Shown: positions 3,453 through 64,000 of the stretch, piece by piece | Numbering within the stretch: position 1 is the first letter of the stretch | Layout: each line of letters opens with the position of its first letter | Assembly: GCA_026387335.1 (NCBI GenBank) | Contig: JAPLLX010000003.1 | Coordinates: 74,230 to 138,229 of the forward strand | From: Candidatus Omnitrophota bacterium | GTDB lineage: Bacteria > Omnitrophota > Gorgyraeia > Gygaellales > Profunditerraquicolaceae | Direction: 5' to 3' | Length of the DNA stretch: 64,000 nt | Program-made: the position numbers and the translations under genes | The notes under the pieces: model-generated | Database searches by the model: none | Told to the model about the DNA's origin: nothing | The model's input: only the letters and a program-made list of their open reading frames with translations

Positions 3453-4730
3453 TTATCCTACTGATAAGGCTTTCCGTATTTTATCTTCTATCCCCGAAAG
3501 CGGCCCGATCAGGCTTAAATTAATGTTTTTGTCATCAAATATCTCAGCCGCGGCTTCCCGGATACTAGCCCTATCCACACGATTCACTTCAGCAATGATA
3601 TCCTCTAAAGAAAATGTTCTATCCAGCTTAAGAGTAGTTTCACCTATCCAAAGCATATGTTCTAAAGTATCCTCTAAGGCCAGCCTTAATTGGCCGATAT
3701 AAAATTCTTTCGCCCGCCTGAATTCACCGGCAGTAACCAGATTATTTCGGGTTTTCTTTAATTCTTTCAAAATCAGGGGTATAGCCTCTAATACTTGCTT
3801 ATTATCAATTCCCGCGTGCACAATAAACGCCCCGGTATCCTGAAAACGCTTGACCAGCGAACCTATCTCGTAGGCCAGCCCGCGTTTCTCCCGGATTTCA
3901 TCAAAGAGGCGCGAGGACATATTAGCGCCTAATATGACATGGAGCATGCCCAAGGCGTGTTTCAAAGGATGTTCCCTCTTAAAACTCCGGAATCCCAAAG
4001 CCATATGGGTCTGTTCGGTTTCTTTATGGAAAAGTTTAAAAGCCGGCGCGTCCTGATTTTCTCTGACTCGCTGAAAAGTGTTTAGCCTGTTAGCTGGGAG
4101 TCTGGAGAATATCTTATTTACAGAGCGCTCTAATTTTAGGCTATCCAGATTGCCGCAGGCGCTGACCACGATATTGGAAGCGGTATAATAGCTCTCTTTA
4201 AAATCTAACAGCTCTTTTCTGCCTATGCTCTTTACGGATTCAACCGTGCCTATGATGGGTGAACCCAGGGGCTGCTTTGGCCAGAGCAATTCATCCAGAA
4301 GCTCATACACATAACTCTGAGGAAGATCCCTGTACATCTTTAACTCTTCCAGAATGACTGTCTTTTCTTTTTTAATATCGCCTGTAAAAAGCAGGGGATT
4401 GATCACCATATCCGCTAAAATATTTAAGCCCGTATTCAGACGCGCAGCCGGCACTTTCACCAGATAGCAGGTAAGCTCTTCCGAAGTAAAACCGTTTAGG
4501 GACCCTCCGATACCCTCAATAGATTCCTTAAGCAGCCGGCAGGAATAGTTCTTGGTCCCCTTAAACAAAAGATGCTCTAAGAAATGCGCCGCGCCTTTGT
4601 TTCGTAAGCCCTCGTATCTTCCGCCCACATTTATCCATATACCCAACGCCGCCGACTCCCGCTTAGGCATATTATGGCTGATGATCTTTAATCCGTTATC
4701 TAAACGCGTCTTTTTATAAATATTTTTCAT
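3453..4730 (-). CDS. M16-family zinc metallopeptidase (insulinase/pitrilysin-like)
   Basis: 425 aa with the inverted zinc-binding motif HxxEH ('AHFLEHLLFKGT') near the N-terminus and a downstream glutamate region typical of M16 peptidases. Confidence 0.85.
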   Translation of the reverse strand: MKNIYKKTRLDNGLKIISHNMPKRESAALGIWINVGGRYEGLRNKGAAHFLEHLLFKGTKNYSCRLLKESIEGIGGSLNGFTSEELTCYLVKVPAARLNTGLNILADMVINPLLFTGDIKKEKTVILEELKMYRDLPQSYVYELLDELLWPKQPLGSPIIGTVESVKSIGRKELLDFKESYYTASNIVVSACGNLDSLKLERSVNKIFSRLPANRLNTFQRVRENQDAPAFKLFHKETEQTHMALGFRSFKREHPLKHALGMLHVILGANMSSRLFDEIREKRGLAYEIGSLVKRFQDTGAFIVHAGIDNKQVLEAIPLILKELKKTRNNLVTAGEFRRAKEFYIGQLRLALEDTLEHMLWIGETTLKLDRTFSLEDIIAEVNRVDRASIREAAAEIFDDKNINLSLIGPLSGIEDKIRKALSVG

Positions 4731-5512
4731 GCCTTTAACCCGCTGACAAAATTACTTACCCTTTTTACTAAATCAGCCTTACCGCTATTTTCCTTTATCT
4801 TCTTGACGATCGCGCTTCCGATAATAACGCCATCAGCAAAACTTTTAATCTCTCTGGCCTGAGACGAAGTTGATACGCCAAAGCCGACACAAACCGGCTT
4901 TTTGGTATATTTCTTGATCAGATTGATCTGCCTGCGGATCCCGGAATCAAGATTATTGCGCTCTCCGGTTACTCCGGTCAGAGAAACATAATAAATAAAA
5001 CCTTTAGAGACCCTGGAGATTAATTTTACTCTTTTCAGGCTGGAAGTCGGAGAAAGAAAACAAATCACATCCAGGCCTCGTCTGTTTGCCGCCTGGATAA
5101 AATCCCTGCCCTCTTCAGGAGGTAAATCCGGTATAATCAATCCGTCTACGCCGGATTCCTTGGCTTGGGCAATAAATTTTTTATCCGGAAAACAAAAGAC
5201 CGGATTGTAATAAGTCATCAGGCAAATAGGTATATTGACGCTTTTGCGGGCCTTCTTAACCAGATTCAATATATCAATAAGATGCGTGCCCTTCCTTAAA
5301 GCTTGGGAAGAAGCCTCCTGGATCACCGGGCCATCGGCCATAGGATCGGAAAACGGGACTCCCAACTCTAAAATATCCACTCCTATTTTATCAAACTCAT
5401 AAATAAGTTTTTCAGTTATATGGAGATTAGGGAAACCCGCGGTGATAAAAGCTATAAAAGCCTTTTTTCCTTTCTTTCTCAATTCTTGAAATTTTTTATC
5501 TATGCGGTTCAT
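4727..5512 (-). CDS. trpA: Tryptophan synthase alpha subunit
   Basis: 261 aa TIM-barrel protein with '[17 protein letters not shown]' and 'GFGVS' motifs. It is translationally coupled to trpB (4-nt overlap). Confidence 0.9.
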
Positions 5513-6696
5513 ATTTTGCCTTTAGTCACTATTCCCAAGTCCTTATCTCCCCTGCCGGATAAGCAGACTATAACAATTGATTTCCGGTTAATTTTCTTAG
5601 CTAACTTCTTTAAATAGGCGATAGCGTGCGCTGATTCTAACGCCGGAATTATTCCTTCTAACTTAGAAAGTAAATCAAACCCTTCCAGGGCTTCTTTATC
5701 GTTGATCGCGACATATTCAGCCCGGCCGATTTTCTTATAATAGGCATGTTCCGGCCCGACCCCGGGATAATCCAGCCCGGCAGAAATAGAATGCGTAAGG
5801 CTGACCTGGCCGAATTTATCCTCTAATAAACCTGACTTTGAGCCATGTAAAACGCCTATATCGCCGTTCACTAAAGTAGCCGCGTGTTTACCGCTAGATA
5901 ATCCTCTTCCGCCGGCTTCCACCCCGATAAACCTTACTTTTTTGTCATTAACAAACGGATAAAATAACCCCAGGGCATTACTTCCTCCGCCTACGCAGGC
6001 AACCAGGTAATCCGGCAGACGTTTTTCTTTCTTTTTAAGCTGGACCTTGGATTCGCTTCCGATCACCGACTGAAAATCCCTTACCAACATCGGATAGGGA
6101 TGCGGCCCGGCAACAGTACCGATGATATAATGCGTATCGCGCACATTAGTCACCCAATCGCGCAGAGCCTCGGTCATCGCGTCTTTTAAGGTCCGGGAGC
6201 CGCTTTTTACCGGGATCACATTCGCGCCCAGCAGTTGCATACGGAAAACATTGGGCTTCTGCCTTTCCATATCTTCCTGGCCCATATAAACATCACATTT
6301 TAATCCAAAGAGGGCCGCAACCGTAGCGGTAGCTACGCCATGCTGGCCCGCGCCGGTCTCCGCGATTACCCGCGGTTTTTTCATCCGCAGGCACAGAAGC
6401 GCCTGAGCCAGAGTATTATTTATTTTATGCGCGCCGGTATGTAAAAGGTCTTCCCTTTTAAGATATATTTTATTTATGCCTAGATGCCGGCTGAGCTTCT
6501 TAGCAAAATATAACGGCGTTGGCCGGCCGGCGTATTCATTTAAATAAAATTTAAGCTCCGTCTTAAACTGCTTATCTCTTCTCGCCTTTTTATATTCTTT
6601 TTCCAATTCATCCAGGGCAAAGATCAGCGTCTCCGGAACAAACCTGCCGCCAAATTCCTCAAAATGCCCGGATTTATCCGGTAATTTTTTTTCCAT
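5509..6696 (-). CDS. trpB: Tryptophan synthase beta subunit (PLP-dependent)
   Basis: 395 aa with 'HTGAHKINN' around the PLP lysine and the 'GGGSNA' glycine loop. Typical TrpB length. Confidence 0.95.
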
Positions 6697-7622: not shown

Positions 7623-8407
7623 CCCATTAGTTCTTCGACCTTAGCCTTGATATTTTCCGCCTGCATAAAAGCCGTACCGATTAAAACCGCGCTGACCCCC
7701 AGAATTTTTAAAAACAGGATATCCTGATAAGTCTTAAGCCCGCTCTCTACAACTACTACTTTATCCTTGGGAATCAAGGTATATAATTTTTCAGTCGTTT
7801 TAGGGTCAACCTCCAGGGTATGCAGATCCCGGTTATTTATGCCGATAAGCGCTACCCCTTTTAATTTTAAGACCTTTTTTAGTTCCTTTTCATTATGCAC
7901 TTCCACTAAACAATCCATATTCAATTGCGTAGCCAGGGCCATAAATTGGGTTATTTCATCCTGGGTGAGCAAATCCGCGATAAGTAGTATGGCGTCAGCC
8001 CCGTAAAACCTGGATTCGTAAACCTGATAAGGCTCAATAATGAAATCTTTCCTTAATACCGGGACCGCGGCTATATTTTTTATTTCATTAATATAAGAAA
8101 TACTCCCCAGAAAATAATCCTCTTCGGTCACAACCGAGATCGCCTGGACTCCTGCCTCCTGATAGATTTTGGCAATATCCAGATGGTTAAAATCCTGCCG
8201 GATTAGGCCTTGCGAAGGCGAAGCCTTTTTTATTTCAGCGATCAGGGAAATCTGGCGCGGCTTACTTAACGCCTTAATAAACGGCCGGGTAGGACTAAGC
8301 CCCTGAACCTTGGCTTTTAATTCCTCTTCAGGAAGAAGCTGCTTAGCTAAAGCCAGGCGCTCTTTTTTCTTTAGGATGATCTCTTTTAAGGTGTCTATTT
8401 TTGCCAT
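7616..8407 (-). CDS. trpC: Indole-3-glycerol phosphate synthase
   Basis: 263 aa with 'IAEIKKASPSQG', 'RKDFI', 'LIGINNRDL' and 'ESG' motifs characteristic of IGPS. Confidence 0.9.
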   Translation of the reverse strand: MAKIDTLKEIILKKKERLALAKQLLPEEELKAKVQGLSPTRPFIKALSKPRQISLIAEIKKASPSQGLIRQDFNHLDIAKIYQEAGVQAISVVTEEDYFLGSISYINEIKNIAAVPVLRKDFIIEPYQVYESRFYGADAILLIADLLTQDEITQFMALATQLNMDCLVEVHNEKELKKVLKLKGVALIGINNRDLHTLEVDPKTTEKLYTLIPKDKVVVVESGLKTYQDILFLKILGVSAVLIGTAFMQAENIKAKVEELMGW

Positions 8408-9417
8408 TACCGTGAATACTTCTTCAATAATTCCAGTTTTCTTAAAGCCGCCTTGCTATCTATTGACTCTGCGGCTAGTTTTATGCCTTCGTTGATCGAG
8501 CCGGCTTTATCCGCCGCGTATATTGCGCATCCCGCATTCAGCAAGATTATATCCCGCCGGGAACCGTCTTTACCATCTAAAATATCCAAAGCTATCTGGA
8601 CATTATCAAATAAGCTTCCTCCCAGAAGATCTTCCGGCCGGGCGCGCTTAAATCCAAAATCCTCCGGCGCTATTTCGTATTCCTTAAATTCACCGTGATT
8701 AACCTCACAGATTTTCGTCTTATCGGTAGTAGTCACTTCATCCAGGCCGTCTAAGCCATGCACTACTAAAACATGCTTGGTCCCTAAATTATATAAGACG
8801 CGGGCTAAAATCGGCGGCCACTGGCTGCTATAAACCCCGATCAGCTGATTGGTCGCCCGGGCAGGATTGATTAACGGGCCCAAAATATTAAACATGGTCT
8901 TAGAGGCTATGCGCTTACGGGCCAGGGATACATTTTTCATCGCCGGGTTAAGGTTCGGCGCGAATAAAAAGGCTATCCCGATTTCCTCAAGGCATTTCTT
9001 AATTTTTGCCTTATCCATATTTATATTTACGCCCAATGCCTCTAAGATATCGGCGCTTCCGCAGATACTGGAAACTGAACGGTTGCCGTGTTTAGCGACT
9101 ACAACGCCGGCGCCGCTGGCCACAAAAGCGCTAATGGTAGAAATATTAAACGTGCCTTTTTTATCCCCTCCTGTTCCGCAGGTATCCAATATATTCGGTT
9201 TATCCACGATAATCGGGTCAATATATTTAAGCATCATCTCTACGGCCGCGGTCAGTTCTTCAATCGTCTCTCCCTTGCTATTTAAACAAGTCAGAAATTC
9301 GATTATATCCGCGGTATCCGTCACTCCGCTTAAAATATCATACATTACCGACTGCATCTCGTGAGCGGAAAGGTCTTTCTTCTGGATTAACTTATTTATC
9401 GCTTCTTTTATGATCAT
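8407..9417 (-). CDS. trpD: Anthranilate phosphoribosyltransferase
   Basis: 336 aa with 'DTCGTGGD', 'KHGNRSVSS' and 'NPAR' motifs of TrpD. Confidence 0.9.
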   Translation of the reverse strand: MIIKEAINKLIQKKDLSAHEMQSVMYDILSGVTDTADIIEFLTCLNSKGETIEELTAAVEMMLKYIDPIIVDKPNILDTCGTGGDKKGTFNISTISAFVASGAGVVVAKHGNRSVSSICGSADILEALGVNINMDKAKIKKCLEEIGIAFLFAPNLNPAMKNVSLARKRIASKTMFNILGPLINPARATNQLIGVYSSQWPPILARVLYNLGTKHVLVVHGLDGLDEVTTTDKTKICEVNHGEFKEYEIAPEDFGFKRARPEDLLGGSLFDNVQIALDILDGKDGSRRDIILLNAGCAIYAADKAGSINEGIKLAAESIDSKAALRKLELLKKYSR

Positions 9418-9977
9418 AGATTAACAAAGTTAGCTAAAATATCCATTCCGCATTTGGTAAGAATGGATTCCGGGTGGAATTGCACTCCCCAAACAGGATA
9501 TTTTTTATGTCTCAGGCCCATAATCTCATCTTCCTTGGTCCAGGCGGTGATCTGAAGGCATTCCGGAAGGCTCTTTTTCTCGACCAGCAAAGAATGGTAA
9601 CGCGTGGCCTCAAAAGGATTAGGGACGGCCCGGAATATCTCTTTGCTGTTGTGATAGATCATCGAGGTCTTGCCGTGCATAAGCTTCTTGGCGCCGATAA
9701 TTTTTCCTCCGTAAGCATACCCTATCGCCTGATGGCCAAGACAAACCCCTAAAATGGGAATTTTACCGGCGAATTCTTTTATCGCCTCAACCGAGACCCC
9801 GGCGTCTTCCGGCCGGCCCGGCCCGGGAGAAATAACTATTTTTTTAGGATTAAGTTTATTTATCTCACTCACAGTAATCTTGTCATTACGCAAGACTTTT
9901 ACCTCCTGGCGCAAGGAACTTAAATACTGCACCAGGTTATAAGTAAAAGAGTCGTAATTATCAATCATCAGGATCAT
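9414..9977 (-). CDS. trpG: Anthranilate synthase component II / aminodeoxychorismate synthase glutamine amidotransferase
   Basis: 187 aa class I GATase with 'ILGVCLGHQ' (catalytic Cys) and 'GVQFHPES'. No trpE is present in this window. Confidence 0.85.
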   Translation of the reverse strand: MILMIDNYDSFTYNLVQYLSSLRQEVKVLRNDKITVSEINKLNPKKIVISPGPGRPEDAGVSVEAIKEFAGKIPILGVCLGHQAIGYAYGGKIIGAKKLMHGKTSMIYHNSKEIFRAVPNPFEATRYHSLLVEKKSLPECLQITAWTKEDEIMGLRHKKYPVWGVQFHPESILTKCGMDILANFVNL

Positions 9978-11236
9978 TCTTTTTCTCTCCAGACCTTGGC
10001 CCCTAATTTCTCCAGCTTCTCTTCAATATTTTCATATCCGCGCTCCAAATGATATATCCTGGATATGCTGGTCTTGCCTTTGGCAGCCAAGCCGGCTAAG
10101 GCTAAACAGGCGGACGCGCGTAAATCCGAAGCCATTACCGGAGCGCCGCTAAGTTCTTTTATCCCTTCAACAATAGCGTGCGGGCCTTCCCTCTGAATAT
10201 GGGCGCCCATACGGTTAAGTTCGGCGACATGCATAAACCTGTCCGGATATATTTTTTCAGTAATCACGCTTATCCCGGGCGTAACGCTCATCAGGCTCAT
10301 CATCTGGGCCTGCATATCTGTGGGAAAACCCGGATAAGGAAGCGTAGTAACGTTTATGGCTTTAAGTTCATTTTTATACCTTACATGCATAGAATTATCG
10401 GTTTTAACCAGCCCTGCTCCCGCTTCTTCCAGCCGATCAATTAACGCGCCTAAATGCTTATAAGAAACATTTTTAATCAGAATGTCTCCGCGGGTAATCA
10501 GAGCAGCTAGGATCATTGTCCCGGCTTCAATCCTATCCGGGATGATTGTATGTGTCGCGCCGTGCAGGCGCTTTACTCCCTCTATTTCAATTATAGGCGT
10601 GCCCTGGCCTTTGATCTTAGCTCCCATCTTAACCAAAAATTCCGCTAAATCCACTACTTCCGGCTCGCAGGCCGCGGATTCAATCACGGTTTTGCCATTG
10701 GCTAAAACAGCGGCCATCATCACATTATCGGTGGCCAGGACCGATGAACCGTAAACCCCGCCTAAATAAATGTGGTTACCTTTTAATTCTTGAGCCTTGG
10801 CGATTACATAACCGGACTCAATATTTATATCCGCGCCCAACGCCTTTATCCCCTTTAAATGCAGATCTACCGGCCGCACGCCGATTACGCAGCCCCCGGG
10901 AAGAGAGACCTTGGCTTTCTTAAGTTTGCCTAAAAGCGGGCCCAGGACGCAAAAAGAAGCGCGCATGGTTGAAACCAGTTTATAGTCGGCGACATAACCT
11001 GTCTTTTTAAGTGTACTTATTGAAACTATGCCTTTTTCCAGATCCGCGCTTTTACCCAAAGAACGCAATATCCTTATCATTGTATTTGTATCGCGCAGGT
11101 CCGGCACGCCTTTGATTATACAGGCATCATCCGTAAGCAGGGTTGCCGCCAATATGGGCAGGACCGCGTTCTTGGCTCCTGAGATAGTGACTTCACCCTT
11201 AAGCTTTACCCCACCTTCAATGACTAATTTATCCAT
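9974..11236 (-). CDS. murA: UDP-N-acetylglucosamine 1-carboxyvinyltransferase
   Basis: 420 aa. 'MDKLVIEGGVKLKGEVTISGAKNAVLPILAATLL' is the typical MurA N-terminus. The enolpyruvyl-transferase fold is present throughout. Confidence 0.95.
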   Translation of the reverse strand: MDKLVIEGGVKLKGEVTISGAKNAVLPILAATLLTDDACIIKGVPDLRDTNTMIRILRSLGKSADLEKGIVSISTLKKTGYVADYKLVSTMRASFCVLGPLLGKLKKAKVSLPGGCVIGVRPVDLHLKGIKALGADINIESGYVIAKAQELKGNHIYLGGVYGSSVLATDNVMMAAVLANGKTVIESAACEPEVVDLAEFLVKMGAKIKGQGTPIIEIEGVKRLHGATHTIIPDRIEAGTMILAALITRGDILIKNVSYKHLGALIDRLEEAGAGLVKTDNSMHVRYKNELKAINVTTLPYPGFPTDMQAQMMSLMSVTPGISVITEKIYPDRFMHVAELNRMGAHIQREGPHAIVEGIKELSGAPVMASDLRASACLALAGLAAKGKTSISRIYHLERGYENIEEKLEKLGAKVWREKE

Positions 11237-26638: not shown

Positions 26639-27340
26639 TTAATTCTCCTTTCGCACATTTGATTTTAATAGATCCGGCCGTCTTGCTCGCGTCCTTTTTA
26701 ACGCTTCTTTATTTCTCCAGGCTTCTATTTTCTTATGATCCCCGGAAAGAAGGACTTCCGGCACGCTCATCTTACGAAAATTCGCTGGCCGGGTATAATG
26801 CGGATGTTCTAATAGATTACCCTCAAATGACTCAAAATTCAAGGAATTTTTATCCCCTAAGACCCCCGGAAGAAGCCGCACAACACTATCCACCAAAACC
26901 ATAGCCGCCAGTTCTCCTCCGGTAAGCACATAATCGCCTATGGATATCTCCTCATCCACCAATTTTTCCCGTACTCTCTCATCCACTCCCTCATAATGCC
27001 CGCAGATAAGAATTATGTGCTTCTCTTTTGAAATATTTTTAGCGATTTTTTGGGTAAGTTTTTCGCCTTGAGGGCATAATAAAATTACTTTTGACTTTTT
27101 ACCTTTTATTTTTGATTTGATATGCTCAACCGCCTTAAAAATCGGCTCCGGCTGCATAAGCATACCTGAACCGCCTCCAAAAGGCCGGTCATCAACCTTA
27201 CGGTGCTTATCCGAGGTATAATCCCTTAAATCATGAATATGAAATTTAACCTTACCTTTATCTTGAGCCCGCAGCATAATGGATTCATTCAGCACAGGCG
27301 CAAACATTTTAGGAAATATAGTAATTATATCTATCCTCAT
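26639..27340 (-). CDS. trmD: tRNA (guanine37-N1)-methyltransferase
   Basis: 233 aa SPOUT knot MTase. '[13 protein letters not shown]' and '[14 protein letters not shown]' are TrmD signatures. Confidence 0.95.
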
Positions 27341-28473
27341 ATTGCCTGTCCTTTGGCGTATTCCAGCAAAAATTCTTTTTTAAACTCGCTGAATTGATTA
27401 TCTTTAATCGCTTCCCGTATCTTACGGGCCAAATCTAAAAAGAAATATACGTTATGTAAAGAAAGCAAGGTCAAACCCAACATCTCCTGAGCGTTAAATA
27501 AGTGCCGCAGATAGGCCCGGCTAAAATTCCGGCAGCAATAGCAGCCACATTTTTCATCCAAAGCCTTAAAATCATCGGCAAATTGGGCGTTGCGGATGAT
27601 AATCTTCCCGCGGCTGGTAAACCCTGTCCCATTCCTGCCGTAACGGGTGGGAACAACGCAATCAAACATATCAATCCCCCGCTCCACCGCCTCAATTATA
27701 TCCGGCGGATAACCTATACCCATGGCATAGCGCGGTTTTTCAACGGGCAGAAAATTAGCTGTGTATTCTAATATATTATATATTAAATCGCTGGGTTCGC
27801 CAACTGAAACTCCGCCTATGCTAAAACCGTCAAAATCAATATCAATCAATTCTTTAGCGCATTCAGAACGCAGATCCTCATAAGTCGCTCCCTGCACAAT
27901 GCCGAATAACACCTGCTTCTTGGTCGGGCCATGTTTCTTATGCTCCTTAAAATGTTTATACGAACGCTTGGCCCAGCTGATTGTGCGTTTCATGGCGATT
28001 TCCGCGTGGTCCTTAGTACAAGGATAATGCACGCATTCATCCAACGGCATCATTATATCCGAACCTAAGTCTTGCTGAATATCAATTACGTCTTCAGGGG
28101 TCAGGAAATGCTTAAAACCGTCTATGTGCGACTGAAATTCAACTCCCTTGTCGCTTAACTTTCTTAGAAGCGCTAAACTAAAGACCTGATAACCGCCGCT
28201 ATCCGTAAGAATGGGTTTTTTCCAGGAGATAAACTTATGCAAGCCGCCGGCTTTCCGGATAATATCCATTCCCGGACGCAAGAATAAATGATAAGTATTA
28301 GAGAGCATGATTTCCGCGCCTGCCTCTTCCACATCCTTAGGATAAAGGCCCTTAATGGTAGCATGCGTCCCTACAGGCATAAAAGCCGGCGTATTAATTA
28401 CCCCATGCTCTGTAGTAATCCTGCCCAACCTGGCTTTGCTCTTCTTATCTTGCTGAATTAATTCAAACATCAT
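27337..28473 (-). CDS. tgt: Queuine tRNA-ribosyltransferase (tRNA-guanine transglycosylase, bacterial type)
   Basis: 378 aa. It has the catalytic 'DSGGYQ' and 'VPTRYGRNG' regions and the Zn site 'CGCYCC...H' (CxCxxC...H) diagnostic of canonical bacterial Tgt, not archaeosine or DpdA-type enzymes. Confidence 0.95.
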
Positions 28474-28540
28474 TAGTCATTGCGAGTCCGCCGTAGGCGG
28501 ACGAAGCAATCTCTGCGTTGTTATGCTACGTTTATCCTTT

Positions 28541-28673
28541 AAGGTCACAATTTGTGACCTTAAACAATACGCCTTGTTATCTAAAATCTTGAAGTCACAA
28601 TTTGTGACTTCAAACAAATACGCTTAGAGTATACCTTGTTACCTGGAATCTTGAAATCACAAATTGTGATTTC
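28541..28673. repeat. Three tandem degenerate units (about 50-62 bp each), each containing a 21-bp palindrome built on TCACAA-TTTGTGA, in the tgt 5'-flank and island boundary
   Basis: The palindromes are aaggtcacaatttgtgacctt (28541-28561), gaagtcacaatttgtgacttc (28591-28611) and gaaatcacaaattgtgatttc (28653-28673). Arm substitutions are compensatory (agg/cct, aag/ctt, aaa/ttt). Each is followed by an aaacaa(a)tacgc...ccttgtta...aatctt tail. Confidence 0.6.
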
Positions 28674-28736
28674 AAGTAATAAGCCCTGCTTAGAAACAAG
28701 TCAAGTCATACGCTATACAAATCCGAACCGTCCCCT

Positions 28737-29312
28737 TTATGTAAATTCAATTTCGTATTTCGCCTTAAATTTTTCAAACCAATCGAGAAGGTCTCTACAG
28801 AAATATGAAATGATTAAACCGAATTTTAGTTTAAATTTTGTAAACTTATGAGAACCCTGCGATCCAAAATTTTCTATATTTATATTAAGTAAATTTAGAA
28901 TGAAAGAATCCACTAAGACAGAAAACGTTAACATTTTTGCTCCTTTTTCCATAATCTCCCAATCACTTTTAATCGCCTTGTAATATTGGGCATACCGAAT
29001 TACTATAATATTATGTACACCCTTAAGACCCTCTTCTGAAATGTCTGGGTGCCGAGCAGGATTATATATTGCTTTATGCATACCATCTAAAACTATTTTA
29101 ATATTTTCTTCCCCAAGGTAAGCAAATATTCTTTGAAAACAATAAGTTAGAAGAAATACCCAAAGATAAAAAAGTTCCCATTCAATTCTTTTATCATCTT
29201 GCAATATCTTTTCTTCTTTTATGACTTCTCCCCAAGCTGATGATGAAAATTTACTTATCGCTTCTTTGCAAAATGTCTCTACAAATATTTCATAAGGTAT
29301 GGATTGTGACAT
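28737..29312 (-). CDS. Hypothetical protein (191 aa), distal gene of the A+T-rich 3-gene insert. Possible paralog of the 30329-30907 product
   Basis: The ORF is very A+T-rich with K/I/F/N/Y-rich codon usage, unlike the neighbours. The start lies 4 nt after the stop of the 307-aa ORF, indicating translational coupling. It has one long hydrophobic segment and the motif 'MHKAIYNPARHPD'. Confidence 0.5.
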   Translation of the reverse strand: MSQSIPYEIFVETFCKEAISKFSSSAWGEVIKEEKILQDDKRIEWELFYLWVFLLTYCFQRIFAYLGEENIKIVLDGMHKAIYNPARHPDISEEGLKGVHNIIVIRYAQYYKAIKSDWEIMEKGAKMLTFSVLVDSFILNLLNINIENFGSQGSHKFTKFKLKFGLIISYFCRDLLDWFEKFKAKYEIEFT

Positions 29313-29316
29313 TTAT

Positions 29317-30240
29317 TTACCCTTTTTGTAACTGACCAACAGAAGGTTTTTTAAGTTTCAGGAGTTCTGCTATCAACTGCTTAACTTCCGAATGAAGATT
29401 TAAATCCTCAAATTGCCCTCTAATGTTTGTAATTTCAAGAAGCAACCTTGAAGATGAAACTAATGCCATTTTTGCTGTTTCTAAATCTGCCCTTGGATTT
29501 ACATCTCTCTTGTCTGGCTTCTCTTTAAACAAACCCAAACCTATAAAACTTGAGTGTGTTGCCATAGAGAATTTTTTATAAATCCTATACCATTCCAAAC
29601 CTTGATTATCACAAACTCTAAAAATATCTTCTATCTTTTCGTATTCTGGTTTATACCAGAAATTTCTTAGTTTGCCTTTTTTAATAAATTCAGATTTATA
29701 TTCTTCTGCCCTCTTTTTGTATTGTGGATTTAATCTATTTAATTGGAAGTTAACTTGACCCATATTGAAGTCTTTTTCATATTCGTTGAAATCTTCATCC
29801 AGGTAACTATTTAATAAATCATGTGCATAGAATTTAAACGCCATATATTCGCTATCTTTCTTAACGATAGCTACTGAATTCGTAAAGCATTCTAGGAGGC
29901 TTCGTATAATTACAGGGGCTACGGAAACCCATCCATCTTCACACATAGATAAAATACTCCTATCTAAAATAACTGCTCTCTCTCCTATTATATACAGACA
30001 CCCTCTTGCTAAAATATCTTTTCCGGCTAAAGGACTTGGGGGGTTGTATTTTTTGAAAGACGCCAAGTTTGTTTTAACAGCGAAATCTATGACCTTATTA
30101 TAAAAATCTAAATACGCAAATACTTCAGGGGTGGACTTAACGAACCCTTTTGAGCCAGTTATTTTCCCTCTTCTATATCCTTCTCTGACACCTCTTTTAA
30201 ACCCTTCTATGTATACCTTTTTAGCAATAAATTTTAACAT
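29317..30240 (-). CDS. Hypothetical protein (307 aa), middle gene of the A+T-rich 3-gene insert
   Basis: It has an ATG with an upstream AAGGAG. Composition matches its flanking partners, not the host genes. I recognise no catalytic motif. It has a basic N-terminus (KRGVREGYRRGK) and is predicted largely alpha-helical from the residue pattern. Confidence 0.5.
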   Translation of the reverse strand: MLKFIAKKVYIEGFKRGVREGYRRGKITGSKGFVKSTPEVFAYLDFYNKVIDFAVKTNLASFKKYNPPSPLAGKDILARGCLYIIGERAVILDRSILSMCEDGWVSVAPVIIRSLLECFTNSVAIVKKDSEYMAFKFYAHDLLNSYLDEDFNEYEKDFNMGQVNFQLNRLNPQYKKRAEEYKSEFIKKGKLRNFWYKPEYEKIEDIFRVCDNQGLEWYRIYKKFSMATHSSFIGLGLFKEKPDKRDVNPRADLETAKMALVSSSRLLLEITNIRGQFEDLNLHSEVKQLIAELLKLKKPSVGQLQKG

Positions 30241-30328
30241 AATCTAATATCTACTCCTTTAATTATTCCGTGGCACATTACTTGATTATCTTTTCTCCGA
30301 GGAATTAAGTATCGTACCCAGGACTCCG

Positions 30329-30907
30329 TTATTTAATTCTAAATCTTTCTGCCGCTAATTTTAATAATTCAAAATCATCAATGCTAATACTCTTCGGCAT
30401 ACCTATGGAATCCAGAAATTTCATAGTGTCTGCTCTGTCTTTCAATAAATGAGGATACTTAAGCCAAAACCATATTTCGAACATTACAACAGATTGGGAT
30501 TGTCTATATTTCAAACATTCATTAGATGCTATATGCCTAAATAAATAGCATGCCTCAATAATACGAAAAGGTAATGTATCTGTTTCATAAGATAAAACGT
30601 CATCTAGGTCATTATCAGCATGTTTAAAGAAATTTTGAGCCTTGTGAATAGTATTTATCCATAATTTCTTATACTCTGGCTTTATATAATCAGAATCATG
30701 GAGAAAAGCTTCAACGCCATATTTTTTTCCTAATGGCATTAGTACGCCTATGGCAGCTCCTACCAATGTTTCAATAACTACAGGATTAGCCTTATCAAAA
30801 AATAAAAAAATAGCTTCATTTAGTTGTATTTCCGCGGCTTGAATCTTCTTAAAATTAATCTTCATAATCCATTTTTGGTAATTTTTAGAAAAGTACTGAA
30901 TTTTCAA
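30329..30907 (-). CDS. Hypothetical protein (192 aa, or 178 aa from the internal ATG at 30865), first gene of the A+T-rich insert
   Basis: The track start is a TTG. The in-frame ATG lies 14 codons in. It has a hydrophobic segment 'VVIETLVGAAIGVLMPLG' and the motif 'IHKAQNFFKHADND', which resembles that of the 28737-29312 product. Confidence 0.45.
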   Translation of the reverse strand: MKIQYFSKNYQKWIMKINFKKIQAAEIQLNEAIFLFFDKANPVVIETLVGAAIGVLMPLGKKYGVEAFLHDSDYIKPEYKKLWINTIHKAQNFFKHADNDLDDVLSYETDTLPFRIIEACYLFRHIASNECLKYRQSQSVVMFEIWFWLKYPHLLKDRADTMKFLDSIGMPKSISIDDFELLKLAAERFRIK

Positions 30908-30976
30908 ATGACACCGGCACGCTTAGCCGCGGATATTAATGTTAATTATGGATATTTTGCCGAAGGGTGTTGTGAA

Positions 30977-31105
30977 GCGCACAATTAGAAAATTTTCGGC
31001 AAAAGAGTGCGAGGAATTACGACGAACGGAGGAATTCCTTTCTAGCGTAAGTCCTTCCGGGAGTGAGTCGTAAACCGAAGCACTCGGCGAAAATTTTCGT
31101 GCGCG
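30977..31105. repeat. About 130 bp structured element. Imperfect 25-34 bp inverted repeats flank a hairpin-rich core, and each arm contains a perfect GAAAATTTTC palindrome
   Basis: The left arm is gcgcacaattagaaaattttcggcaaaagagtgcg (30977-31011). The right arm is cgaagcactcggcgaaaattttcgtgcgcg (31076-31105), the reverse complement with small indels. The inner core has nested stems (ttacgac/gtcgtaa) and a GGAATTCC palindrome. It lies 23 bp downstream of the queA stop. Confidence 0.5.
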
Positions 31106-31127
31106 AACAATACCCGCAGGCGAAATA

Positions 31128-32120
31128 TCAAAGAATCAACATTGCGTCGCCGTAGCTGTAAAACCTGTATTTCTTATCCACTGCTTCCTGATACGCCTTT
31201 TTCATCAACTGCTCTCCGCCAAAAGCGCATACCAGCATAAAAAGCGTGGTCTTGGGCAAATGAAAATTTGTCAGCAAGCAATTGGCTAATTTAAATTTAT
31301 AACCCGGATAAATGAATAAATTTGTTTGGCCTTCTTTTATGCCAGTAGCATAAACCTCTAAAGCTCTTAATGAAGTTGTGCCTACGGGAATTATGCGGGA
31401 GTTATTCTTGCGCGCTTCTTCTATTTTTTCTTGCGCGGGTTTAGGAACCTGAAAGGATTCCGGTTCCATTTCATGCTCGGTAATATTATCTGAAGTGACC
31501 GGCTTAAACGTGCCTAAGCCGACATGTAAAGTCAAATACGCGGTTTTTACTCCCTCATCTTCTATTTGCTTAAGCAGCTCATTAGTAAAATGCAGTCCGG
31601 CGGTAGGAGAAGCTATCGCGCCCTCTTTATTCGCATAAACTGTTTGATAATATTCTTTATCTAAATCTTCCGGCTCTCTTCTGATGTAAGGAGGAAGCGG
31701 AACCTGGCCGAATTCATAAATTTTATCCGCGTCTTTTAGCTTAAAAGAAATCTCCCGGCGGTTAGTTACTGCTCCCTCAATCTTATCTTTTCCGAAAAAT
31801 ATCTTCTCGCCTATTTTGGTGCGGCTGGGTTGGATCAACGCTTCAAAAGTAGAGCCGCTTCTGCGCTTAGTCAATAAAATCTCAACCTTGCCTCCGGTAG
31901 CCTTATGCCCGATTAAACGGCAGGTAAGCACCTTGGTATCATTTAAAACCAGAAGGTCGTCTTTTTTTAAATATTTGGCGATATCCTTAAAAAGGCAATG
32001 CTCAATTTCTGAGTTTGAGCGGTTGACAACCATAAGCTTGGCTTCCACTCTATCCTCTAGAGGATATTGGGCGATTAATTCTTTGGGCAGGTTATAGTCA
32101 AAATCAGAGAGTTTTAACAT
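31128..32120 (-). CDS. queA: S-adenosylmethionine:tRNA ribosyltransferase-isomerase
   Basis: 330 aa. The N-terminus 'MLKLSDFDYNLPKELIAQYP' and the overall length match QueA, which acts directly after Tgt in queuosine synthesis. Confidence 0.95.
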   Translation of the reverse strand: MLKLSDFDYNLPKELIAQYPLEDRVEAKLMVVNRSNSEIEHCLFKDIAKYLKKDDLLVLNDTKVLTCRLIGHKATGGKVEILLTKRRSGSTFEALIQPSRTKIGEKIFFGKDKIEGAVTNRREISFKLKDADKIYEFGQVPLPPYIRREPEDLDKEYYQTVYANKEGAIASPTAGLHFTNELLKQIEDEGVKTAYLTLHVGLGTFKPVTSDNITEHEMEPESFQVPKPAQEKIEEARKNNSRIIPVGTTSLRALEVYATGIKEGQTNLFIYPGYKFKLANCLLTNFHLPKTTLFMLVCAFGGEQLMKKAYQEAVDKKYRFYSYGDAMLIL

Positions 32121-33300
32121 TTGTCCCCGGATAGTAATATTTTAAGATCTGTTCAGCGCTCTGGTCATCTTTGGCCATAAAATAAGCGCCCCACTGGCAA
32201 AGCCCCACGCCATGCCCCCAGCCAATCCCTTCAAAAACCGCGTCTTTGCCGGATATAGCGACTGAGAAATTAGTGCTCCTGATAATATTCGGGCCTAAAA
32301 TGCCGCGAAAATCCTTAGCCGGAACCTTGACTTCTCCCCCTTCTGACATTATCAACAGGTTGGTAATCCTTCCGGACTTATCTCTGCCCTCTATGTTTAT
32401 ATTACTGATATTTTTTATCTTAAATCCTGCGTCGGATAACTTTTTTCCGATCTCCTTTAAGGTAAGATCATAATGCCAGTTAAAATGCGGAGATTCCCGG
32501 CAGTAGGCGCAAGCTACTCCTTTTAAGGGCGCTAAATCTAAATTCCAGAGGAGCGCCGCGTCCTCTGTATGGCCGCCGCAGGTGGCGTGAAAATAAGCCG
32601 GGATGATCTTTCCTTTATAAAAGAGGACTTTCCCGTCTGTTTCATCCACTGCCCTGGTTGTCCGAAACCGCTCAGAGGTCTGGCCTCCATAGACCTGAGA
32701 ATATATATCACTGGTTACATCAAAATCATTAAGCCTATTCTCCTGTATCTGATAAAGCGCGTAGGTGCGCGAAACTATCGCCTGCGCCTTTAACGCCTCC
32801 ATCGGCCAGTAATGGGAGGTTTCATGATACATAATACCTTTGATATAATCTTGCAGTTCAATATGATTGACGACCAGTATTTTATTTTCGCCTTTGCGGA
32901 TAAACTGGATATTCCCCCGGAACATCCTCCCGTTGATTATAATGGCCTCGGGGTCGTCGGATTCAATCAACAGGTTCTCGGAATTCGGTTTTACTCCCCC
33001 CAGGATTATTCCGTTTTTATAGGTGGTTACCGTCGTATTGATAGACTTGGCCCGGTAGACTATCTTATCGCTCTTTAGGTCCTTGACCCTAAAGAACCCT
33101 TTTATCTTAAGGCTCAAAGATGGCGCGTCCTGGATAATAGCCACCCGCACATAGCGCGGAGTATCGGCAAAAGCAAAACCCGCCGTAATCAAAATTGACA
33201 CAACCACTATCTTAAATATGCGTATCATCGGGTCTTGGAATTTGGTTTTTTTATAGAGCGTTCTATTTCCGAATAAATGCACCCGCAATATTTCTGGCAA
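32104..33300 (-). CDS. SpoIID/LytB-domain protein (secreted; peptidoglycan lytic transglycosylase/amidase-enhancer family)
   Basis: A signal peptide 'MIRIFKIVVVSILITAGFAFA' begins at the internal Met (about 33228), which lies just after the queH stop. The track N-terminus is an artefactual extension overlapping queH. The C-terminal region has a SpoIID-like conserved Cys/His-containing core. Confidence 0.75.
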   Translation of the reverse strand: MPEILRVHLFGNRTLYKKTKFQDPMIRIFKIVVVSILITAGFAFADTPRYVRVAIIQDAPSLSLKIKGFFRVKDLKSDKIVYRAKSINTTVTTYKNGIILGGVKPNSENLLIESDDPEAIIINGRMFRGNIQFIRKGENKILVVNHIELQDYIKGIMYHETSHYWPMEALKAQAIVSRTYALYQIQENRLNDFDVTSDIYSQVYGGQTSERFRTTRAVDETDGKVLFYKGKIIPAYFHATCGGHTEDAALLWNLDLAPLKGVACAYCRESPHFNWHYDLTLKEIGKKLSDAGFKIKNISNINIEGRDKSGRITNLLIMSEGGEVKVPAKDFRGILGPNIIRSTNFSVAISGKDAVFEGIGWGHGVGLCQWGAYFMAKDDQSAEQILKYYYPGTNVKTL

Positions 33301-33770
33301 TAAATTCCTTTTGTATGCGCCGCATCATGCGCTTTCCTGAAACCTGGCCTAAAATCCGCGTAATAAAATTTCACGCCTTCTTCGAGCGCGACCGCATTGC
33401 CGATTTTTTTAAGTAACTCCTGGTCCTGATAAGGACTGACTAAAAGAGTGGTTGTAAAATATTCCAAACCTTTATTTTTGGCCTCTTGGGCGGTCCTCTT
33501 AAGCCGCTGCCTCCAGCATATCCGGCACCTTTCCGGCGCTTCTTCCTTTAAATTAACCACCTGGAAAAATTCGCGGGGAGAATATTCCGGATAGAGCATC
33601 TCTATACCAGCAGCTAAAGCGCTAAACGCCTCTTTCCTCTTAATGTATTCCGCCAAAGGATGGATATTCGGGTTATAAAAGAACCCGGAAACTTCAAAAC
33701 CTTCCTGTTTTAATTTTTCCAGAGGGTAAATCAGGCACGGCGCGCAACAGGTATGCAGTAAAAGCTTCAT
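33225..33770 (-). CDS. queH: Epoxyqueuosine reductase QueH (DUF208)
   Basis: 181 aa beginning 'MKLLLHTCCAPC', with a C-terminal 'YCQKYCGC' cysteine cluster. These are the hallmark Fe-S ligands of QueH. Confidence 0.85.
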   Translation of the reverse strand: MKLLLHTCCAPCLIYPLEKLKQEGFEVSGFFYNPNIHPLAEYIKRKEAFSALAAGIEMLYPEYSPREFFQVVNLKEEAPERCRICWRQRLKRTAQEAKNKGLEYFTTTLLVSPYQDQELLKKIGNAVALEEGVKFYYADFRPGFRKAHDAAHTKGIYCQKYCGCIYSEIERSIKKPNSKTR

Positions 33771-33771
33771 T

Positions 33772-34269
33772 TTATAATTTGAATCTGCTGATAATCAATC
33801 TGCCGAAGAAATCACTCATAAAAATTACGCAGAGGGCGATAAGCATATGCTCGAACATCGCTGTATAGGGGCTGAGCTTGCGCTCGCGGGCAATGCGGTA
33901 ACTGATAGAACATAACAATAATAAACCCCAGGCCAAAGAAACCAGCACTGCCAATTGCAGGGGTAAAAATAAGACGCAGGCAATAAAGGTGAGCGAAACT
34001 AAAAGCCGGCTGGTGAAGTTAGTCAAAGTTGAGATCCAGACTTCTTTCTGGGCCAGGCACTCTGACTCTTGATAAATGTGTATTCCCACCGAATCCGAGA
34101 TATTATCCGCCAGGGCTATGATCAGCATACCGCCGATAATGCTTATCTTGGCGTGCTCTCCGGTCCTTAAGCCGACGACCAACGCTAAATTGGTGATAAT
34201 CGCGGCTGTCGCCCCGAAACTAAACCGCGTGTCTTTTAACCTGCACTTTTCTTTAATGAATTTAATCAT
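33772..34269 (-). CDS. Small VIT1/CCC1-related (TIGR00267-like) membrane protein
   Basis: 165 aa. 'FSFGATAAIITNLALVVGL' is a VIT-family-like first helix and three to four TM helices are predicted. The family assignment comes from weak motif recall. Confidence 0.4.
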   Translation of the reverse strand: MIKFIKEKCRLKDTRFSFGATAAIITNLALVVGLRTGEHAKISIIGGMLIIALADNISDSVGIHIYQESECLAQKEVWISTLTNFTSRLLVSLTFIACVLFLPLQLAVLVSLAWGLLLLCSISYRIARERKLSPYTAMFEHMLIALCVIFMSDFFGRLIISRFKL

Positions 34270-60875: not shown

Positions 60876-61407
60876 AAAATCTGACTAGTTCTTCCCATTT
60901 ACCCTGCGCCTTAAGTATTAACTCGGCAACTTCCCTCACCGCGCCGCGGCCGCCGTGCTTTATAGTAATATAATCGGCAGCCTGTTTGATCTCCGGGCAG
61001 GCGTTAAAAACCGCTATAGGCAGCCCCACGACTTTCATCAGCCCTAAATCCACCAGGTCGTCTCCCACAAAACAAACTTCATCTTTAGTGACCTTATATT
61101 TCTTTAAAATTTTATCCAGTATGGCGCTTTTAGGAAAGATATCCGCGAATACTTCGGTTATGCGCATGTCGCGCGCCCGCGGCTGAATGGTTCCGGAACT
61201 TTTAGCGGTAACGATAATGGTCTTGATCCCGGCTCTATTTAAAACATAGACTCCCAAGCCGTCGTGGACATCAAAAAATTTTGAATCCCTGCCCTTGGAA
61301 TCATAAATGATCCTGCCGTCAGTCAAAACGCCGTCCACATCCAGCAGCAAGACCTTGATTTTCCTGGCGCGTTCTTTTAATTCTTCCTTAAACGTAGCAC
61401 TGGGCAT
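60865..61407 (-). CDS. kdsC: 3-deoxy-D-manno-octulosonate 8-phosphate phosphatase (HAD family)
   Basis: 180 aa. 'LLLDVDGVLTDGRIIY' DxDx(T/V) HAD motif I and a 'GDDLVD' motif. Confidence 0.8.
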   Translation of the reverse strand: MPSATFKEELKERARKIKVLLLDVDGVLTDGRIIYDSKGRDSKFFDVHDGLGVYVLNRAGIKTIIVTAKSSGTIQPRARDMRITEVFADIFPKSAILDKILKKYKVTKDEVCFVGDDLVDLGLMKVVGLPIAVFNACPEIKQAADYITIKHGGRGAVREVAELILKAQGKWEELVRFYEA

Positions 61408-61409
61408 CT

Positions 61410-62378
61410 TTAGACTAATCCCGCCTTAAGCAGGTCCTGAACATCTAAAAGTCCTATCGGACGCTTAAATTTATCCACTACCGGTAATTCATCAACTCTT
61501 TTTTCCTGCAATATGCGCATAGCCTCGGCTGCCAGCATATCCTGATAAACAACCGTCGGATTCTTAGTCATTACCTCGCTGATCTTGCGTAACGGCAGGT
61601 CCTTATCCGTTTCCAGGTGGCGCCTGAGGTCGCCGTCAGTAAATATCCCTTTTAATTTACCGGCCTTATCTACTACTGTAGCCGAGCCGGCGCGGGCCTG
61701 AGTAATCTTTAAGAGGACTTTGGCGACTCTTTCTTCTTCTTTGACAATAGGATTGGCGTGGCCCGAACGCATAATATCTTCTACCTTTAAAAGCAAACGC
61801 CTCCCTAAAGCTCCTCCGGGATGAAAAAAAGCAAAATCTTTTTCCTTAAAACCCTTTAATTCTAATAAACATACGGCCAAGGCATCGGTCATAGCCAGGG
61901 CGGCTGTGGTGGAAGCCGTAGGCGCCAGGCCTAAAGGACAGGCTTCTTTTTTTACGGATACGTCTAAAACTATATCGCTATATTTGGCCAAAACAGATTT
62001 CGCGTTTCCGGTCAGGGCAATTACTTTACAGCCTATCTTCTTTAATAAAGGCAGCAGTTGCTTCATCTCTTGCGTTGAGCCGCTGTTAGAGAGTATGATC
62101 ACCACATCATCCGCAGTCACCTTGCCTAAATCTCCATGGATCGCCTCGGCAGTATGCAAAAATAAACTTGGTGTCCCGGTTGAGGCCAGGGTCGCGGAAA
62201 ATTTCTGGGCGATGATCCCGGTTTTACCCATACCGCTGATTATGGCCCGGCCTTTTGTCCTGAAGATTAAATTAACGGCGTCTTTAAAATTGTTATTGAC
62301 CCGCGACTTTAACCCTTGGATAGCCCTGGCTTCAATATCCAAAACCTCTCTTGCCCTTTTTACTATATTTATCCTCAT
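61410..62378 (-). CDS. kdsD: Arabinose-5-phosphate isomerase (SIS plus tandem CBS)
   Basis: 322 aa. It has an N-terminal SIS domain 'ISGMGKTGIIAQKFSATLASTG' and C-terminal CBS pairs. Confidence 0.9.
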   Translation of the reverse strand: MRINIVKRAREVLDIEARAIQGLKSRVNNNFKDAVNLIFRTKGRAIISGMGKTGIIAQKFSATLASTGTPSLFLHTAEAIHGDLGKVTADDVVIILSNSGSTQEMKQLLPLLKKIGCKVIALTGNAKSVLAKYSDIVLDVSVKKEACPLGLAPTASTTAALAMTDALAVCLLELKGFKEKDFAFFHPGGALGRRLLLKVEDIMRSGHANPIVKEEERVAKVLLKITQARAGSATVVDKAGKLKGIFTDGDLRRHLETDKDLPLRKISEVMTKNPTVVYQDMLAAEAMRILQEKRVDELPVVDKFKRPIGLLDVQDLLKAGLV

Positions 62379-63187: not shown

Positions 63188-63193
63188 TATATT

Positions 63194-63928: not shown

Positions 63929-64000
63929 TAGCCTAACCTTTCCAATAGTTCGTCCCGGGTAGCCGTGGCTGTCCCAATCTTGCCCACAACAATACCCGCG
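63929..64000 (-). CDS. 3' end of an unidentified upstream CDS (C-terminus ...AGIVVGKIGTATATRDELLERLG*), truncated by the window edge
   Basis: The minus-strand frame is open to the window edge and terminates with TAA at 63929-63931, immediately before kdsB. It is too short to identify. Confidence 0.3.

Follow-up and report, generated by a model that had tools for sequence, protein, structure and literature searches.

The queA–tgt junction in the window

We have analyzed a 64,000-nucleotide stretch of contig JAPLLX010000003.1 from a Candidatus Omnitrophota bacterium (assembly GCA_026387335.1), hereafter called the window. A long inverted repeat that we call the A element lies here directly after queA. 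All the genes around it are on the minus strand, and run in the order ruvB, a 165-amino acid (aa) open reading frame (ORF), queH, a gene encoding a SpoIID domain and queA. These are followed by the A element, three ORFs that constitute an insert, a hairpin-rich spacer, and then tgt, trmD and rnhB. The two halves of the A element covary across related genomes as the strands of a single hairpin, and copies are found in many unrelated intergenic spacers. On balance we think that it probably belongs to an interspersed family of palindromic repeats. The principal features of the locus are as follows.

31128-32120, minus strand: queA (Pfam Queuosine_synth, E = 4e-126), with its TGA stop codon at 31128-31130
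30951-31127, minus strand: the full repeat unit or A element, an imperfect palindrome of about 177 nt that reads TATTTCGCC...GGCAAAATATC in the gene sense
30974-31107, minus strand: the conserved core (approximately 30977-31105 in an earlier note on this DNA), comprising four helices with small internal loops that are pyrimidine-rich on the minus strand
31089-31098: GAAAATTTTC, the gene-sense 5' strand of helix 2, with its partner at 30988-30997
30988-30997: GAAAATTTTC, the gene-sense 3' strand of helix 2, with its partner at 31089-31098
31024-31067, minus strand: variable apical stem-loop of the GGAAGGACTTACGCTAGAAAGGAATTCC type, differing between genomes but common to the copies inside one genome
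28737-30907, minus strand: the cargo ORFs between the A element and a second hairpin, termed C, at 30329-30907 (a 192-aa ORFan), 29317-30240 (a 307-aa DUF5677 protein) and 28737-29312 (a 191-aa ORFan)
27337-28473, minus strand: tgt

The letters and positions reported in the earlier note match the sequence. The motif gcgcac begins at 30977, both copies of GAAAATTTTC are in place, and the interior contains the nested stems ttacgac/gtcgtaa and a GGAATTCC palindrome. The decamer GAAAATTTTC occurs just these two times in the 64 kb, compared with an expectation of 0.47. The extent of about 130 bp given at that time holds for the core, but not for the whole; the unit is about 177 nt in length and abuts the queA stop codon. 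Its limits were set at approximately 30951-31127 from the stretch that is common to the window copy and its paralog at a sister-strain locus (L039), with which it shares 97% identity over 177 nt. The unit can be aligned to 31 relatives, and its termini are (GA)TATTTTGC...GCAAAATA(TC). It contains no conserved ORF; the covariation described below is structural and not coding. The window has a single copy.

The TGA stop codon of queA directly adjoins the unit and lies inside a TTTGA motif, and this motif precedes the A unit in other contexts too. Where the site is empty, the queA gene of the relatives ends with TAA or TAG, with the exception of L005, which has TGA. The TGA of queA at the filled site is supplied by the TTTGA of the element itself. 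A look-up of the exact queA protein returned no record. Base pairing in the window reaches approximately 30937-31143, past both ends of the unit, because the remnant of another repeat (B, at 30905-30950) forms base pairs with the final codons of queA.

The element forms one covarying hairpin

We compared the folding of the element with that of shuffled sequences. As RNA, a 143-nt stretch gave z = -4.6 and -5.5 for the two strands, and a 221-nt stretch gave z = -6.5 and -8.2, the hairpin growing with the added flank. Folded as single-stranded DNA (ssDNA), the corresponding values were z = -5.3 and -7.3. These scores on both strands, and their behavior on addition of flanking sequence, indicate that the hairpin is real, non-random and larger than 130 bp.

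The alignment of the core comprises 35 base pairs in four helices, and 99% of its cells are paired. Ten of these pairs have undergone compensatory double changes (50 cells in total), and none of 500 shuffles matched the observed pairing and double changes. If the partner strand is slid by one to three columns, pairing falls to approximately 40-50%. Sequence variation in the apical stem-loop and in the basal stem has left both self-complementary. The description of a structured inverted repeat with a long stem in the earlier note is upheld. The covariation shows that the hairpin has been selected, and is compatible with RNA or ssDNA and with either strand. Only two wobble cells are found among the compensatory changes of the core compared with the 50 double changes, so that almost all go from one Watson-Crick pair to another. 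Pyrimidines predominate in the conserved internal loops on the gene-sense strand (UUC/UC, U/UU and UC/UC), and the loops are GA-rich on the opposite strand (GA/GAA and GA/GA).

Helix 2 contains the two decamers. They had been described as two perfect palindromes, and both are indeed present in the window, but they are not independent, being the two strands of one helix. Across the relatives the 31089 and 30988 sides of this helix read GAAAACTTTC/GAAAGTTTTC, GAAATTTTTC/GAAAAATTTC and GAATTTTTTC/GAAAAAATTC. Thirteen of the 29 relatives have arms that, although not palindromic, remain complementary to one another. The distance between the centers of the arms is 101 bp in the window, and ranges from 96 to 107 bp over the 29 relatives.

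A family of dispersed copies in Omnitrophota

A 19-mer taken from the conserved part was scanned over metagenome contigs (related loci are labeled here with L-numbers). The scan returned 36 metagenome loci, 34 of which contain the whole element. We constructed a covariance model (R1) from 29 distinct cores. R1 scores the metagenome copies at 120-156 bits and the core in the window (30974-31107) at 146 bits (E = 6e-39), and it added one divergent copy, L036:187-338, at 59 bits. L036 has two copies on one contig of 5.8 kb. Retrieval based on queA places the window in Candidatus Omnitrophota, and the hosts of A elements are metagenome-assembled genomes of this phylum. The suggestion of a multi-copy element similar to a miniature inverted-repeat transposable element (MITE) is borne out in the broad sense, with R1 supporting many dispersed copies across related genomes. 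A 16-mer scan of IMG/VR gave 26 matches at the level of chance, none scoring above 16 bits with R1, and BLAST of the A unit against plasmid and phage collections gave no match. A full-text literature search found no prior description of non-coding elements in Omnitrophota.

Copies within one genome are closely similar. L039 overlaps the end of the window (61301-64000) with 98.5% identity, and its 344-kb contig therefore derives from a sister strain. That contig has at least two further copies, L039 and L035, making at least three in the strain and contig together. The L039 copy (4729-4924) is located about 2 kb past window position 64000, after a tandem heptosyltransferase gene and immediately before a C hairpin. 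One apical type is common to the copies of the window, L039 and L035, and differs from the apices of orthologous queA-site copies elsewhere; the 97% identity between the window and L039 copies covers both the apex and the basal stem. Some copies are nested, either A within A or A within B. L003 has a half copy (5989-6071) that runs from the queA-proximal arm to the apex and then gives way to unrelated GC-rich sequence, and this is evidence of deletion or recombination inside the element.

The presence of the element is patchy on the queA tree. It occurs in two clades, and is absent from interleaved relatives in which queA abuts tgt. L007 is a distant example in which the element is present. 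Its queA is only 69% identical to that of the window at the amino acid level, yet the element lies directly 3' of the gene with 82% nucleotide identity. Relative to the window there is a compensatory change of GCGCAC/GTGCGC to GCGTGC/GCACGC, and a different gene follows the element.

Position, orientation and conservation of the copies

The A copies occupy at least 14 unrelated spacers, and all are intergenic. They follow queA in at least eight genomes and an SPFH/Band-7 gene in at least five, and in four genomes they are found between tRNA-Lys and tRNA-Leu downstream of frr (encoding ribosome recycling factor). Other upstream genes identified with Pfam encode heptosyltransferase, CysS, AIR synthase, pseudouridine synthase and TopA, and LeuS- and GltD-like genes were assigned by reading the sequence alone. 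The typical position is 0-80 nt after the upstream stop codon, or inside the tRNA operon. In all copies that have a plausible upstream gene, this gene runs in the same direction as the element. The same is true of the downstream genes, with L040 as the one exception, its ORFs between A and C being on the opposite strand. The identity of the element between genomes is 79-93%, compared with 46-62% for the third codon positions of queA in those genomes, which are saturated. The element is therefore conserved above the neighboring gene.

The insert is variable cargo

We compared the spacers between queA and tgt in the window (28737-31127) and in L001-L011, L029, L034, L037-L048 and L070. The three ORFs of the window are variable content, and no part of the repeat. 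The only homologs of this cargo seen were in L044 (the first ORF) and L038 (a different DUF5677 protein). L037 has queA, the element and tgt without cargo, and unrelated cargo follows the element at the queA site in L007, L048/L055, L070 and L040. In relatives that lack the element tgt comes directly after queA. Two roles that had been proposed for the element in relation to the insert are contradicted by this distribution. The earlier note had suggested a 5'-untranslated region controlling the insert. Neither this nor a riboswitch-like controller is supported, as copies are found at 14 or more unrelated loci, without cargo in L037 and with unrelated cargo elsewhere. Since it is found both free of cargo and with unrelated cargo, it is not a regulator specific to the three ORFs. 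The note had also suggested an insert-specific boundary marker, and had itself named occurrence at many unrelated loci without the three ORFs as the observation that would count against this; that is what we find. Lastly, it had seen a weak hint that the two ends of the insert are related in a CACAATT string shared with the hairpins at the far edge. That link is due to chance, as most relatives read GCGCGCATTAG at this position. The notion of paired ends survives in an altered form, because a different hairpin family, C, is present at the tgt-proximal edge.

Some further observations concern this junction and others like it. PADLOC gave no match for the three ORFs of the window. The first ORF of the insert has an internal ATG (MKINFKKIQAAE...) as an alternative to the TTG at 30907 (the region 30865-30907), and its homolog in L044 reads MKIDIKKIEAAE...; from this comparison translation probably starts at the internal ATG and not at TTG 30907. 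In this clade the junction of queA and tgt is a hypervariable hotspot, with a gap of just 9-20 nt in six relatives and accessory genes in others (DUF5677, ORF6N/Rha, flavodoxin-like and ORFans). The junction between the SPFH gene and a 106-aa gene is likewise variable, containing Fic/DOC, a Schlafen-AlbA_2 ATPase or ORFans. L001 has a group II intron (8335-10186, domains D1-D4 and D5/6) downstream of the queA spacer, and L045 has an FMN riboswitch (1111-1256) about 750 nt downstream of its A-C pair.

Companion hairpins

Two further families of repeats are associated with the A element. The C family has the form AGCGGATGGCTTGGCTTGTTTC...GAAACAAGACAAGCCAGACGCT, with a length of 85-165 nt and a variable interior. 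The B family has the form CCTGTCAATTTTCTCGCTCAGCACGATTTT...GGCTAAAATCGNNATTCGCTCGAAACTTGCCAGG, and A elements are often nested inside it. Their locations are listed below.

28683-28714 of the window, minus strand: the C 5' arm AGCGTATGACTTGACTTGTTTCTAAGCAGGGC, at the tgt-proximal edge of the insert (nhmmer, E = 5e-8, and BLAST)
C copies at other loci: L007 7581-7742; L038 11201-11361; L039 4729-4643; L035 1455-1371; L042 from 3402; L069 1051-888; L043 from 2002; L051 314-151; L045 397-560
30905-30950 of the window, minus strand: a degenerate B right arm that pairs with the 3' coding end of queA at 31131-31143, from comparison with L007 and L037 (AATTGACATTCGCGGC and AAATCGACATTCGCGGTCAAACTTGCCAG)
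B sites at other loci: L001 6089-6188; L004 approximately 6135-6350 (inverted); L030; L034; L042 2544-2568; L067 363-387; L037 approximately 100-135

Of the 14 C copies in about 700 kb of collected loci, 13 have an A element upstream of them, oriented the same way. C follows A after 12 nt in L039, L043 and L051, and after 22 nt in L045. In the window, L007, L038/L047, L035, L042, L069 and L040 it lies beyond A plus one to three unrelated ORFs. C ends about 15-25 nt upstream of the start codon of the next gene. The cargo between A and C comprises DUF5677, Schlafen AlbA_2 ATPase, Fic/DOC and ORF6N/Rha proteins together with ORFans. A conserved cassette-tail motif preceding C (AAGGGKNNSGNTT) was sought, and is not general. 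The A-C pair may bracket an insertion hotspot.

The B arm of the window was also compared with the B consensus of L001, L042 and L067. Sites at queA have the B right arm alone, and this arm complements the final codons of queA, which are conserved; L007 and L037 are examples. A possibility is that the 3' end of queA mimics the B left arm, and so serves as a preferred target.

There are also several smaller hairpins in these spacers. Three short hairpins of the CTTGAAGTCACAATTTGTGACTTCAAG type lie upstream of tgt in the window (28540-28677), and appear to have been inserted inside the degenerate C hairpin. Relatives that lack A have a single copy of this type between queA and tgt (L002 at approximately 6050-6077 and L003 at approximately 6190-6216). 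A weak Rfam match to MIR5998 (E = 0.23) was rejected, as it corresponds to a palindrome of this same type. A small conserved hairpin of sequence GTCATTGCGAGTCCGCC(G/T)TAGGCGGACGAAGCAATC is found at 28476-28512 of the window, between queA and A in L044 and L055, and in the spacers of several genomes. Hairpins containing GGGACTGTCCCCGYAGGGRACTGTCCC recur in L001, L035, L042 and L070.

Comparison with known RNA classes and repeats

Rfam gave no match on the element, whether at gathering thresholds over the whole window, at E<=1 over 28000-34000, or in 15 related loci, and ARAGORN found neither tRNA nor tmRNA in the window. A number of specific classes were considered and set aside. A Rho-independent terminator was rejected for the absence of a U-tract. 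The candidates 6S RNA, SRP RNA, K-turn, CsrA sponge, retron msr/msd and IS110 bridge RNA had no support from sequence, context or comparison. The same applies to a single-strand origin of the ssoA type, and the loop TAGCGT occurs in this strain only. The element does have the general properties of a MITE, in that it is a non-coding sequence of about 177 nt with terminal inverted repeats and multiple dispersed copies per genome. No Y1 transposase was present among the scanned neighboring proteins of the 64-kb window and of fragments of about 10 kb, a REP-associated tyrosine transposase (RAYT) not being searched for genome-wide, and the scanned neighbors of the copies included no integrase or recombinase.

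In kind, the best-supported kinship is with the enterobacterial repetitive intergenic consensus (ERIC), and more loosely with REPINs (hairpins formed by pairs of repetitive extragenic palindromic, REP, sequences) and Correia-type MITEs. ERIC sequences, or intergenic repeat units (IRU), are imperfect palindromes of about 127 bp located in transcribed intergenic regions. They are conserved across species, have a modest copy number and exhibit size variants arising from indels. They have been proposed or shown to influence how stable the mRNA around them is, and they occur in both orientations. To our knowledge there is no transposase associated with ERIC. The A element resembles ERIC in the size of the palindrome (its core being about 130 nt), in its confinement to intergenic regions, in its modest copy number, in its size variants and in its conservation across species, and it is probably transcribed too. 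It differs in having no sequence similarity and in belonging to another phylum. Moreover its orientation follows that of the flanking genes, and B and C hairpins often enclose the A unit or are paired with it. Membership of the ERIC sequence family was rejected given the Omnitrophota hosts and the lack of plasmid or phage matches, the ERIC consensus itself not being aligned directly.

Correia elements of Neisseria (CREE or NEMIS), and similar MITEs such as RUP and BOX, are about 100-150 bp in length with terminal inverted repeats, and lie beside genes. Correia-type elements are co-transcribed, giving long RNA hairpins that are cut by RNase III with altered mRNA stability. Correia elements are present in hundreds of copies, with duplicated TA targets and with outward promoters or sites for integration host factor (IHF). 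The A element has a similar size class, terminal inverted repeats and gene-adjacent placement, whereas no TA duplication, no copy number in the hundreds and no outward promoter or IHF site is demonstrable for it.

A REPIN comprises two short REPs of about 20-25 nt plus a spacer, usually with tens to hundreds of copies and a RAYT gene flanked by REPs (PMC3116915, PMC3337134). The A element is like REPINs in being an extragenic hairpin of inverted repeats that is vertically persistent and non-autonomous, with copies inside a genome that are alike, as in a population with a genome-specific master sequence, and is unlike them in being one long conserved rod of 130-177 nt at low density (PMC3116915, PMC3337134). 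REPIN architecture was rejected, as the complementarity of the A element is continuous over 130-177 nt in four helices and is not that of two 20-25-nt REPs.

Interpretation

Our preferred interpretation, held with a confidence a little above the balance point, is that the element in the window represents a family of interspersed palindromic repeats, not catalogued before, in a clade of Candidatus Omnitrophota. These would be similar to ERIC, REPINs or MITEs, and co-transcribed within the spacers of operons. The shared apex and basal stem within a genome, together with the nested and truncated copies, point to copying or gene conversion at the level of DNA. Copies would thus be propagated or homogenized as DNA, either by transposition mediated by an enzyme acting in trans or by gene conversion. 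The position and orientation of the copies suggest co-transcription, and as part of the operon RNA the element would fold into a rod of about 80 bp. By analogy with other bacterial palindromes such as ERIC, REP/BIME and Correia elements, its most probable effect would be that of a hairpin at a 3' end or between cistrons, blocking exonucleases and/or being cut by a nuclease specific for double-stranded RNA. Message stability upstream would then be uncoupled from that downstream. Only the orientation that is tolerated or useful would be expected to survive.

A number of observations weigh against this interpretation. The density of copies, about one per 30-100 kb, is low for a MITE or REPIN, and both conservation across species and retention at orthologous sites exceed expectation for a purely selfish element. 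In the flanks of about 30 copies there is no consistent direct repeat, and a terminal TA that could be a TA duplication is inseparable from the inverted repeat itself. Neither solo or split ends flanking an ORF, nor a transposase with the same ends, were found in the approximately 700 kb of collected loci. The signals of a transcript are also lacking. A terminator scan gave no sites in 30600-31400, the 3' flank GGCAAAATATC... having no T-run. A promoter scan gave only matches at the level of chance, with ATGACA-18-GATATT on the plus strand at 30908-30937 lying in non-conserved flank. Wobble pairs do not indicate an RNA strand, with 54 G.U compared with 49 A.C over whole hairpins, and a constraint acting on DNA fits the Watson-Crick to Watson-Crick pattern as well as one acting on RNA. 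Furthermore, it is the strand complementary to the genes (plus in the window) that folds better, by about 11 kcal/mol, in 32 of 32 copies. That difference arises from the purine-rich versus pyrimidine-rich loops, and therefore the minimum free energy does not identify a strand.

Some of these features are what might be expected of a dedicated functional RNA, derived from a 3'-untranslated region or spacer, that binds protein or directs processing and has paralogous copies. A specific factor would then recognize the helices and internal loops, with the apex of each genome co-evolving with this factor. The conservation of the element exceeds that of the coding gene beside it, its internal loops are invariant with a consistent pyrimidine/GA asymmetry of the strands, and it has a strict orientation and a placement right after stop codons. 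Retention at orthologous sites in several genomes and the low copy number would also be accounted for. Yet there is no match in Rfam, G.U pairs are not in excess of A.C on either strand with almost no wobble intermediates, and no conserved promoter or terminator delimits a transcript. Truncated and nested copies, and a patchy presence among close relatives, are also difficult to accommodate. We consider such an RNA unlikely, but worth keeping in mind.

The arrangement of A and C suggests another explanation, in which they are the two ends of a landing pad for promoterless accessory or defense-type cassettes. Docking would depend on a recombinase that acts on folded single strands, in the manner of attC, or on the repeats serving as portable homology arms between divergent genomes. 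It is supported by the 13 of 14 C copies that lie downstream of a same-orientation A, at 12 nt or beyond one to three unrelated accessory ORFs, by cargo of defense, toxin or phage type, and by the different cargo held by the queA-tgt and SPFH-106-aa gene junctions from genome to genome. The nearly pure Watson-Crick covariation, and the good folding of both DNA strands, are also in keeping with it. However, no integrase or recombinase is found beside any copy, and no conserved junction motif can be defined at the edges of the cargo. C and cargo are both absent from many A copies, for instance those at tRNA-Lys/Leu, topA, leuS and L037. Cargo could also gather simply because the A-C spacer is the only neutral point of insertion. 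We therefore regard docking as improbable. An equally doubtful extension is that such docking sites exist at several places per genome and are conserved across divergent Omnitrophota, giving integron-like capture without a recognizable integrase.

Two known systems are informative in this regard. The attC sites of integrons are 57-141 bp in length with R''/L''-L'/R' boxes (GTTRRRY), are present once per cassette, and need the IntI integrase. The A element shares with them an imperfect palindrome, the potential to fold as a single strand, and a position adjoining variable promoterless cargo ORFs. But whereas the structure of attC outlasts its sequence, the sequence of the A element is highly conserved, lacks the R and L boxes and is mostly free of cargo. 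An integron attC was rejected, given that the ends TATTTTGC/GCAAAATA lack GTTRRRY/RYYYAAC and that no element follows each cargo ORF of the window. The minimal mobile elements of Neisseria have variable cargo between conserved flanks that are ordinary core genes, exchanged by homologous recombination. The resemblance is that different accessory genes are found at one conserved junction across genomes; the difference is that the repeats A and C lie at the junction here, and may provide portable homology.

The remaining explanation, a pair of operators about 10 helical turns apart at which a dimeric DNA-binding protein would loop the DNA, scarcely merits consideration, for although both GAAAATTTTC are perfect palindromes in the window with centers 101 bp apart, the in-phase pair proposed in the earlier note is excluded by the non-palindromic yet complementary arms and the variable spacing found among the 29 relatives, and covariation unites the entire 130-177 nt in one hairpin.

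The finding accounts for the long hairpin at the edge of the queA-tgt insert, and adds to the description of an uncultured phylum a new and strongly conserved family of structured repeats, for which there are about 35 members, a covariance model and support for the secondary structure, and which can serve in the annotation of Omnitrophota genomes. The A...C bracket around unrelated defense-like genes offers a lead on how accessory genes slot into the compact operons of small genomes, and if A-C docking proves to be true it would represent a gene-capture system, integron-like but without a recognizable integrase. The strict sense orientation, conservation above that of the neighboring gene and homogenization within a genome make a trio of properties that is unusual for selfish MITEs. 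The A family is thus a test case for the domestication of intergenic palindromes into RNA or DNA elements.

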